Position numbers and translations under genes: made by a program. From contig OX597824.1 of assembly GCA_951406725.2 (NCBI GenBank), forward strand, positions 85,126,001 through 85,190,000: a DNA stretch of 64,000 bases. The letters are read 5' to 3'. Positions within the stretch are counted from its first letter, which is position 1. Each line of letters starts with the position of its first letter. Below the pieces are notes generated by a model. The model was not told the DNA's origin. It did not search any database and saw only the letters and a list, made by a program, of their open reading frames with translations. Below are positions 35,601 through 40,135 of this stretch, piece by piece. The stretch comes from Octopus vulgaris (taxonomy: Eukaryota).

Positions 35601-38600
35601 TAGATAAGGCGGCGAGCTGGCAGAAACGTTAGCACGCCGGGCGAAATGCTGAGCGGTATTTCGTCTGCCGCTACGTTCTGAGTTCAAATTCTGCCGAGGT
35701 CGACTTTGCCTTTCCTCCTTTCGGGGTCGATTAAATAAGTACCAGTTACGCACTGGGGTCGATATAATCGACTTAATCCGTTTGTCTGTCCTTGTTTGTC
35801 CTCTCTGTGTTTAGCCCCTTGTGGGTAGTAAAGAAATAGGTACCGACTAGATCTCCCGAATGAGTTACTCTGCTCTTGAACAAACTACATTATGTAATCC
35901 ACCGATGGGTAAGGTGTCTGTCCTTTCACCCTCATTCGTCATACAACCTCTTTCACTATATCCACATAGTATCAAATTATAATAATGATGATAATAATAT
36001 TAATAATGATAATAACAATTAAAATATTCTACTCAATACCAAGATGGGCTACAATAGATATTCTGCTCAATACCAAGATGGGCCACGGTAAATATTCTGC
36101 TCAATACCACAAATTTGCTTGTCAGATGCTTGAACTTAACCAGTGGCTGATGACATGTGCATCTCTGATCACGAGTCGGAATAGTGGGGGAGCACCACAG
36201 CCATGTGTTGAGAAGATTTCTTTAGGGTTTGAATAATTCACCTTTGGAAACATGGGTGTTTCGTTCATCATCCTTAGACAACCCTTATTCAGGGACATTT
36301 TAAGCGGGACGGGTTACTTGACTATAAAAATTCTAACAGTGCACCCCGCCTCTGAAAAGTTATGCGCTCTTTATCTTCATATGCAGTGACCATGTCGCGC
36401 ACATATGATTGTAATGCATGTGCTGAAGTGACCTTATCATGATGAGTATATTGGGCTTCGTATATTTGCACCCCAGTGTCACTTTGTTGGCATTCAATGC
36501 TCTCTCACTTAATAATAATAATAACCTTCCACAGGTTCAAAATTACATGTCAGTTTACTTCAATTTTTGTTTAGACTATATAGGACCGTGGTAACTCATC
36601 CAGAAGTTATAATAATAATAATAATAATAATAATAATAATAATAACGATAATAATAATAATAATAATAATAATAATAATAATAATAATAATGATAATGAT
36701 AATAATGATTGTTTTTTATTTGCTACCAGATCGTTGTATGACAATTTAAAAGACGTACTTAAAAGATAGGAATTTGCATAGAAAAGCGATTGAGAGAAAG
36801 AACCATGAAATATAAGCATACATAGATATGAATGATAATAATGATGATAATGATGATAAAGATGATAATGATGCAGTTTTCTTGATAGCCGAAAACCAAC
36901 ATTGCGGCCACTCGAAGAGCGCCACACATGCAAGACCATTTTATAACAACAACAACAACGACACTAACACCAACATCATCATCATCATCATCATCATCAA
37001 CAACAATAATAATTTCTTTTCTTTGTTACATTAGCAATGGATGAAGGAACGAAATCAATAATGATAATAATTTCTAACTTTGGCACAAGATCACATATTA
37101 CGGGAGAATAAACTTGATTAAGTCGACCCCTGATGGCAAATGTATATATGTATAGCATATAAAACTGACAGATATAACCTACTATATACATAAATACATA
37201 AACATATATGCGCACATACACACACACACACACACACACACACACACATACACACACACACACACATATATATATATGTGTGTGTGTGTGTGTGTGTGTA
37301 TATATATATATATATATATATATATATATATATCAATAATAAATCTCTGATATGTATGTATATATGTACATATATCTGTACACACACACACACACACACA
37401 CACACATATATGTATGCACATATACGTATGTATAAATGCATATATATATATATATATATATATATATATATATATATATATATATATATTTATTTATATT
37501 ATTATATTATTGAACGCCACGCATCCTCCTCCAAGTAAGTTTTATCTTAATAATTCTGATGCGCACTCTATATGATCTTTTTACTCTTTCGTTTTTCTCT
37601 CTTTTTCTCCCACTTATTATTTTACCTCCTTTTTCTCCCACTATTGTATCCTATTACTCTGTCACATTCTCTCCCTCACTCCTCCTCCCTTGCGCACGTG
37701 GCTCCCACGTGACCATCAGCCATCTTTCTTTCTCTCCGTTGTAGCCGGAACAAGGAAGACGTGTTCTTGTTTGTCTCCTATCCTAGATTGATTTACGCGT
37801 TCGTCACCTCAACTGCGTATAGGCTTAGCAGCCCTTCTTGTTTGTTTTCACTATCCTGTTTGTGTTACCAATTTTGACCCACCGCAAAATCCCAAATCTT
37901 ATTTAATTTGCTTTGTGAGAGCAACTGTTTTATCGAAAGCGTATATTGTCGTTAAATGCTTGAAATACGAGACTAGAAAAACAGCCAACAACTGATGAAG
38001 GGTTGTTCTTTATGTTGCTTGTTTTGTTTTCCATTTGTGTCTTTCGTTGTTCGAAAGAATAATTCATATTCCATCTACTTGTGCTTCGTACTTTTTTGTT
38101 GTATACGTTTCGTGACGTCCTGTGCCCACATGTGCATATATATATATATATATATATATATATATATATATATATATATATATATATATATATATACATA
38201 TATATGTATAGCTGTATGTACATATAGGTATGTATAAATGCATATATATATATATATATATAATAGAAATATTAAAATAACTAAGTCTCTCTAAAAGAGA
38301 ACAGCGGCAGCGTTCCCGGAAAATAATAGTTATCGCCATACTAATATGGCATTCTTATAAAAATAAGAAAAAAAAGCTGTCCGCTTATTAGCTCCATGAG
38401 GCCATCGCCTTAAGTTAGCTATTTGATACACAAACTGTATCCATATAACCTTCGAACAAGGAGGTCAGTCGCTCCACACTACTTGACCGGCAGCTACAGA
38501 CGCGTTTCGGGGTATTGCCCCTTTTCAATGCAGCGTAGCCAGCCAGTAGGTGTCGCTTCCGACATTCTCTGTTCGATGGTTTTATTTACCTAGTTTCGGT

Positions 38601-40135: not shown

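Follow-up and report, generated by a model that had tools for sequence, protein, structure and literature searches.

The repeat at 38261–39416 of the window (the whole 64,000-nt stretch of Octopus vulgaris DNA that was analyzed) is most readily explained as a recent insertion of a non-coding tandem family that carries hammerhead ribozymes, an animal non-LTR retrozyme for which a Penelope-like element (PLE) likely supplies the reverse transcriptase and endonuclease in trans. We assign this explanation a probability of about 0.8. Judged by its organization, the family belongs to a known class, with self-cleavage and RNA circles as predicted properties, and the U3-A8 hammerhead core, the retrozyme class and the link to PLEs are each already known or proposed. 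What the locus adds is a very young family in which insertion ends and unit variants make the mechanism of mobilization countable. Our searches for octopus or cephalopod hammerheads, retrozymes and U3-A8 cores covered the open literature and found no description of the family, which may already be catalogued as a repeat; the accessible text of the giant squid genome paper gives 235 Hammerhead_1 matches.

The repeat and the hammerhead motifs at the locus are real, and their positions are given in Table 1. The head-to-tail repetition of a unit of ~361–363 bp reported in the earlier note was confirmed, the tandem amounting to 1.9 units with the second unit lacking its first 51 nt in the sense of the hammerhead. 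The same note placed a minus-strand hammerhead in each copy. This is correct for the two tandem copies, in which the string GCUGCA-UUGAAAA-GGGG/CCCC-GAAAC-GC-GUC-UGUAGC and the predicted cleavage sites recur 361 nt apart, whereas the hammerhead of the third copy is on the plus strand. A relaxed type I descriptor that accepts either C3-G8 or U3-A8 gave four matches in the window, compared to none in each of 40 local Markov shuffles; these four are the three unit copies and one unrelated motif. The arms are separated by a 141-nt copy of the right flank that had gone unnoticed, and this captured segment matches its donor with one mismatch. The element contains no tRNA and no stop-free frame of 60 aa within 38355–39399, and the GC content of the unit is 0.42; animal non-LTR retrozymes are characterized by a GC content below 50% and by the lack of coding capacity, LTRs, PBS and PPT. 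Other repeats are present in the window. A second, unrelated back-to-back insertion of PLE type adjoins (ATT)n tracts at 43690–44270 and contains a minimal hammerhead motif with a canonical core (approximately 43736–43783, minus strand), and an abundant repeat with a 184-bp period, together with a related dispersed short element, occurs many times (e.g. 12264–12628 and 56471–56842), with many single copies.

Table 1. Features of the insertion, its flanks and the host gene (window positions unless a contig is named; unit positions in the sense of the hammerhead).
Feature	Position	Strand	Remark
Left (TA)n-rich microsatellite	38136..38260	none	Target of the long-ended arm
Arm 1, first unit (complete, 363 nt)	38261..38623	minus	3' end is the long end, CUAUUA running into (TA)n
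~60-nt "tail" between short and long 3' ends, unit ~302–363	38261..38322	minus	
Long imperfect rod (predicted), hammerhead at tip, unit ~29–185	38439..38595	minus	3 pairs differ on both sides between A and B
Type I hammerhead, U3-A8, palindromic stem III ACGCGU	38493..38534	minus	Predicted cleavage after 38499
Arm 1, second unit, 5'-truncated (unit 52–363)	38624..38933	minus	
Second type I hammerhead motif	38854..38895	minus	Predicted cleavage after 38860
141-nt copy of right flank captured at arm-arm junction	38930..39070	plus	Microhomologies CTGT (4 nt) and TAT (3 nt)
Arm 2, inverted, unit 296–363 plus 1–301	39068..39416	plus	Finishes at short 3' end; 17 nt shorter 3' of the hammerhead
Third hammerhead motif	39225..39265	plus	Antisense to host pre-mRNA; one stem II C missing
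Right (TA)n microsatellite and short unique spacer	39417..39535	none	
Flank, donor of captured junction segment	39536..39676	plus	
sGC exon (HNOBA 104–137), nearest located downstream of insertion	31696..31797	minus	
Further sGC HNOBA/cyclase exons	30053–30184, 27710–27877, within 15858–16121	minus	
First coding sGC exon (HNOB and HNOBA 1–73)	C11:85234321-85235130	minus	~44–45 kb past the window end

A search of the genome bore out the suggestion of a retrozyme-like, multi-copy tandem family. The counts reported here are drawn from best-scoring loci, and those for subfamily A, to which the window unit belongs, come from the best 40 of 1062 candidates in the octopus genome, a sample biased toward young insertions and long arms. 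The A unit measures 362 nt, full units are 98–99% identical, and the 40 scored loci are spread over many contigs, have different flanks and contain 93 hammerhead motifs. Divergence in this sample is 0.2% (84 substitutions in 39,396 bases compared to the column majority), and the window insertion is thus one member of a very young family. Two homologous subfamilies are older. Subfamily B is 80% identical to A and has an internal divergence of ~2% (2888 candidates, best 40 scored). Subfamily C has a 358-nt unit, also with two ends (2070 candidates, best 40 scored and 20 of these fetched), and is homologous and colinear to A and B, with a profile match in 20 of 20 loci (E from 4e-10 to 2e-4) against at most 0.5 bits for the reversed control. 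A divergent arm at one locus (L091) was considered as a further subfamily and rejected; a search with this arm recovered only B, with no match to the central part of the query, as a local rearrangement would produce.

We examined the architecture of the insertions using arms of at least 90 nt, of which the best 40 of the 1062 A loci yielded 75. Back-to-back inverted arms joined at their 5' ends were found at 32 of the 40 loci, with single arms at the other eight. The 3' ends of the arms were of two major kinds, 40/75 being long (unit ~363) and 30/75 short (unit ~301), with 5/75 at other positions, and 66/75 arms ended in TA-rich DNA or (TA)n. The two kinds of end are paired: the 32 two-arm loci comprised 28 long-short pairs, one long-long pair and three with an atypical end, so that 28 of 29 typed pairs join a long to a short end when these three are left out (p=6e-8). 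Subfamily B gave a similar result: 30 loci included 14 with two arms whose ends could both be read, and these comprised ten long-short pairs, one long-long pair and three with an atypical end. At most arm-arm junctions in A the arms either overlap, by as much as 16 nt, or are separated by a few additional nucleotides, and the 5' flanks of single arms vary from locus to locus. With ends that sit in (TA)n, a target-site duplication, which in animal non-LTR retrozymes exceeds 4 bp when present, cannot be read. An inverted 5'-truncated copy, a tail on one end only and a bias toward (TA)n are the marks of PLE insertions (Craig et al., bioRxiv 10.1101/2021.04.23.441226, accessible text), and the accessible part of Frangieh et al. 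2024 (PMC11167929) traces the PLE tail to two start sites of reverse transcription. The octopus insertions work like those of a non-autonomous PLE, with an inverted 5'-truncated copy, a one-ended tail and a microsatellite target. At three loci (L024, L025 and L094) the junctions contain multiple short segments copied again from the unit, which suggests that the template was switched repeatedly.

This architecture bears upon the third copy in the window, which the earlier note read as a circularly permuted monomer and hence as a sign of a circular template. It is the short-ended inverted arm of the insertion, finishing at the same 3' end as 30 of the 75 arms and starting, at unit 296, at a microhomology junction with the captured flank. 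Since an inverted arm is typical of PLE insertions, it says nothing specific about a circle.

The proposal that the template was longer than one unit does hold, with 52 of the 75 A arms exceeding a unit, up to 4.4 units, and 58 spanning the predicted cleavage site; the template must therefore be a multimer or a circle. Linear cleaved monomers were rejected as the main template based on the positions of 5' truncation. Truncation at the cleavage site itself (unit 124–128) was found in 2/75 arms (p=0.28), and a broader window chosen after looking (unit 121–131) contained 7/75 (p=0.008); the main hot spot, with 25/75 arms, lies away from the cleavage site at unit 160–175, where the rod bears a UUCGAA palindrome on its 3' side.

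The strongest rival to the copying of long transcripts is a rolling-circle mechanism, in which the hammerhead frees monomers that are ligated into a circle of ~362 nt and the PLE reverse transcriptase rounds this circle to produce the tandem arms. We regard it as a real but minority possibility. Arms that cross the cleavage site and continue for several units are expected of it, circular RNAs of 350–390 nt have been demonstrated for mussel retrozymes (Cervera and de la Peña 2020, PMC7229834, accessible text), and the predicted circular fold of the unit is highly self-paired for the majority strings of A (z −7.5) and B (z −6.7), with a weak value for one natural C monomer (z −1.9). The variants carried by individual units serve as an independent means to distinguish the templates. 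Seven private variants were common to units of a locus, against ~0.1 chance double hits expected. Two of these are found in all units of both arms, at L001 (3/3 units) and at L101 (5/5 units), as a monomer circle would predict. The other five are found in only some units, which argues against such a circle. One variant of L101 occurs in the 3'-most unit of each arm and nowhere else, and one of L012 only in the next unit of each arm, patterns that a monomer circle could not yield without later conversion; one of the sites is a CpG. The rank-matched variants, although small in number, are what would be expected if both cDNAs had begun within one unit of a multimer of mixed sequence, and do not fit a monomer circle. 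Arm-arm conversion, local duplication or oligomeric circles could also be their source, and it is with less confidence that we infer a template that was, at least sometimes, an uncut multimer. The length of the T-run was tried as a marker of unit rank and found uninformative, 122 of 131 runs being equal.

Runs of U act as terminators for RNA polymerase III and disfavor read-through, and the A unit contains a six-U run, making read-through by this polymerase unlikely. Among 23 rows of sequencing runs, 20 hold at least half of the unit words, none of them recorded as RNA. The unit is covered by contigs from four runs presumed to be RNA, among them a contig of 379 nt that rejoins by 361 nt, a configuration in which circle and tandem, and RNA and DNA, look alike.

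The hammerhead matches the type I pattern YUGANRA / GAAA / NUH with stems I–III and a paired 3-8 position, and has a full 6-bp stem I. It occupies the tip of a predicted rod of ~150 nt, with the 3' ends 175–235 nt downstream. The compensated U3-A8 core noted at the locus is a property of the whole sample of A, where UUGAAAA was found in 93 of 93 motifs and was kept along with the tandem organization (best 40 of 1062 loci); conservation inside A says little, as copies are only 0.2% diverged. Comparison of the subfamilies is more informative. With one spurious regex row excluded, the B core is UUGAUAA in 51/54 motifs, and in the 20 C loci position 3 is C in 19/19 motifs and position 8 is G in 16/19. 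Since C keeps the canonical C3-G8 core, U3-A8 is, on this comparison, a compensated change inside one lineage in which positions 3 and 8 changed together. Between A and B, stem II changed from G-C to A-U with pairing kept, and the stem III palindrome changed from ACGCGU to ACAUGU with the palindrome kept. The predicted hammerhead fold has thus been kept through compensating changes across three subfamilies. Support from the rest of the rod is modest: of its 54 pairs, 3 differ at both positions between the two subfamilies, several others are broken, and pair-count shuffles reach three both-side changes in 108 of 500 trials, A and B being just two lineages. The palindromic stem III suits dimer folding as had been suggested, with a predicted self-duplex energy of −7.5 kcal/mol for ACGCGU. 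Stem III is predicted to be 2 bp with a 2-nt loop and stable only as a dimer, so that the active fold would need a dimer; the predicted minimum-energy fold of the monomer mispairs the core at 1.1 kcal/mol below stems I and II alone. In the accessible text of Li, Clavereau and Pollet 2026 (10.64898/2026.07.22.740005), eight of nine predicted Xenopus retrozyme dimers gave no cleavage in vitro.

A second hammerhead-like stretch (unit 1–43; 38581–38623, minus strand) starts exactly after the long 3' end and consists of UUGAAAA, a hairpin and GAAAC. Its 3' part resembles the hammerhead of Neptune-type pLTRs, and in B it is identical at 42 of 45 positions yet has lost the GAAA. We rejected it as a working ribozyme due to this loss; it is possibly a relic of an ancestral pLTR.

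A potential concern is whether the main hammerhead is itself a dead relic, the family spreading only through a 3' region recognized by the PLE protein. Hammerhead mutants had no effect on PLE insertion in vitro in the accessible part of PMC11167929, the monomer is predicted to mispair its core, and the Rfam hammerhead models run over the locus gave no match at E<=5 in 36000–42000 and, in four related loci, none that reached the gathering score. Against this stand the core, cleavage triplet, stems and palindrome, all kept through changes in three subfamilies, the paired switch between C3-G8 and U3-A8, and the contrast within B, which retains the main motif but lacks the GAAA of the unit 1–43 stretch. 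We consider a dead relic improbable.

To characterize candidate partners we searched for GIY-YIG endonucleases, which gave 6136 candidates; the best 150 were scored and include many open frames of 781 aa. Eight such frames with both reverse transcriptase and GIY-YIG domains are 96.5–99.7% identical to one another and carry a CxxxxCxxC linker, a motif by which we assign them to the Neptune/Nematis type; the accessible text of Craig et al. gives this linker as the mark of that type. The pLTRs of this young Neptune-type family contain U3-A8 hammerheads with ACAUGU, target (TA)n and have two ends 36 nt apart, and in one copy (L068) a long arm is paired with a short one. A U3-A8 motif also occurs in a second PLE family, which is older. 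No pLTR homologous to the unit was found among 40 GIY-YIG loci (150 of the 6136 candidates having been scored) or 24 copies of the second family, and the retrozyme tail is ~60 nt compared to 36 nt in the young Neptune-type family. The young Neptune-type PLE is accordingly only a candidate for the mobilizing partner. Subfamilies B and C were found beside PLE loci. At one locus (L154:1440-1830, G000:C10:30395136-30398407) a C arm is attached by its 5' end, through microhomology, directly to the natural 3' end of an old PLE; this single case may reflect either a template switch that produced a chimera or insertion at the end of the PLE. Several features of the PLEs were noted in passing. In the young Neptune-type copies (L063–L070) the 781-aa reverse transcriptase-endonuclease frame is preceded, with some overlap, by a second open frame, and the 3' region contains subterminal repeats. 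Downstream of the GIY-YIG frame of another PLE family (L052 and L046) there is a U3-A8 hammerhead-like motif with GCAA instead of GAAA and an ACCGGU palindrome.

The unit could instead be the pLTR of an autonomous PLE that is yet to be located, the loci then being 5'-truncated PLE copies or pLTR arrays. The ends, target and type of hammerhead are those of PLE pLTRs, homology between retrozymes and pLTRs is described for 21 Xenopus PLEs in the accessible text of Li et al. 2026, and a sample of the best 40 whole-unit matches would under-sample copies linked to an open frame. The element, however, has no reverse transcriptase and GIY-YIG frame between pLTRs, the unit joins to itself head to tail up to 4.4 times, and the 5' flanks of single arms vary between loci. 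A PLE protein lies near just 2 of 96 fetched A and B locus records (some overlapping), neither in line with the unit: in one the two converge across (TA)n, and in the other there is nesting at the PLE 3' end. The C arm at L154 was similarly rejected as the pLTR of its neighbor, since 0 of 24 other copies of that PLE continue into C. We consider the pLTR explanation improbable as well.

The insertion sits in an intron of a soluble guanylate cyclase (sGC) gene, as minus-strand exons of the gene lie on both sides of it (Table 1); an intermediate exon (HNOBA ~73–104) was looked for and not located. The host protein presumably resembles Gyc88E-type cyclases. The earlier note stressed that the repeat is sense to the sGC pre-mRNA. 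Two of the motifs are indeed sense, but 32 of the 40 A loci have arms on both strands, so any intronic copy would be expected to have a hammerhead in sense orientation. The location within an intron is likely incidental. During transcription the antisense arm precedes the sense units, with which it is predicted to pair in a duplex of ~340 bp that covers one of the two sense hammerheads, making dimer cleavage and excision of a 361-nt RNA unlikely at this locus. The explanation that the sense hammerheads dimerize in the intron, cut the nascent transcript and affect the host gene is consequently the least probable of those considered, despite two intact sense motifs 361 nt apart and a favorable ACGCGU self-duplex, as the insertion is also very young, is one of at least many dozens and has no locus-specific feature. 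Any effect on the host gene is probably small. A-to-I editing is extensive in cephalopods, and the predicted intronic duplex (38261–39416, minus strand) would be an editing substrate, as would those that most loci of the family would form.

Comparison with known systems, as they are described in the accessible portions of the papers cited, supports the assignment of the family and defines its differences. Like animal non-LTR retrozymes (PMC7229834; Li et al. 2026), it has non-coding tandem units within the range of 150–450 bp (350–390 in mussels), low GC, one type I hammerhead per unit and strong self-pairing, and occurs in a genome with PLEs. Unlike them it has a U3-A8 core in its two youngest subfamilies and no homologous pLTR that we could find, and it differs from their descriptions in having (TA)n targets with no readable target duplication and back-to-back arms with one long and one short end. 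With EN+ PLEs of Neptune type it shares partial tandems, an inverted 5'-truncated copy at the 5' end, a tail on one end only, a (TA)n bias and a hammerhead with a palindromic stem III; it differs in lacking an open frame, in a tail of ~60 nt compared to their 30–40 nt (PMC11167929; 10.1101/2021.04.23.441226), and in the full 6-bp stem I and rod-tip position of its hammerhead relative to those of EN+ PLE pLTRs. The minimal U3-A8 hammerheads of Cercyon PLEs of Schistosoma mansoni (Cervera and de la Peña 2014, PMC4209133) show the same covariation of core positions 3 and 8 and a dimer-type architecture, but are mostly single, heterogeneous and tied to PLEs, whereas those described here belong to a uniform tandem family without coding capacity, of which a sister subfamily keeps the canonical core.

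Our preferred explanation, copying in trans by a PLE protein, can be set out as a series of proposed steps. Tandem arrays would be transcribed by read-through, and a PLE protein, probably a Neptune-type dimer, would nick both strands of a (TA)n tract. Synthesis of cDNA would start at the two U/A-rich CUAUUAU sites of one unit, and the two cDNAs would halt at variable points and then be joined by microhomology, this joining having perhaps involved a template switch onto flanking DNA at the window locus. The U3-A8 hammerhead is predicted to cut slowly as a dimer through ACGCGU, releasing monomers of ~362 nt that may circularize. More generally, and quite tentatively, animal retrozymes might be copied by a dimeric Penelope-type enzyme that makes one cDNA from each fixed site in the same unit of an uncut multimer, so that the circle would not be the usual intermediate; the same tentative proposal has the switch from C3-G8 to U3-A8 as one to the core of the active Neptune-type elements, possibly giving a tuned, slower or protein-assisted ribozyme.

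The mobilizing enzyme of animal retrozymes, and the question of a circular or multimeric template, have been argued from co-occurrence and pLTR similarity in the accessible text of the papers cited. In a family diverged by only 0.2%, with at least many dozens of complete insertions, the mechanism is still readable, and a genome-wide count can be made of the fixed paired ends, of the microhomologies at junctions and of the variants in each unit. The intact open frames of young PLEs in the same genome make an assay of trans-mobilization practical, and the natural C3-G8 and U3-A8 sister subfamilies provide a ready comparison of hammerhead cores. The paired unequal ends are typical of PLEs, and the family is therefore likely a parasite of Penelope-like elements, in which the copying of retrozymes from RNA circles can be tested against their copying from long uncut transcripts.
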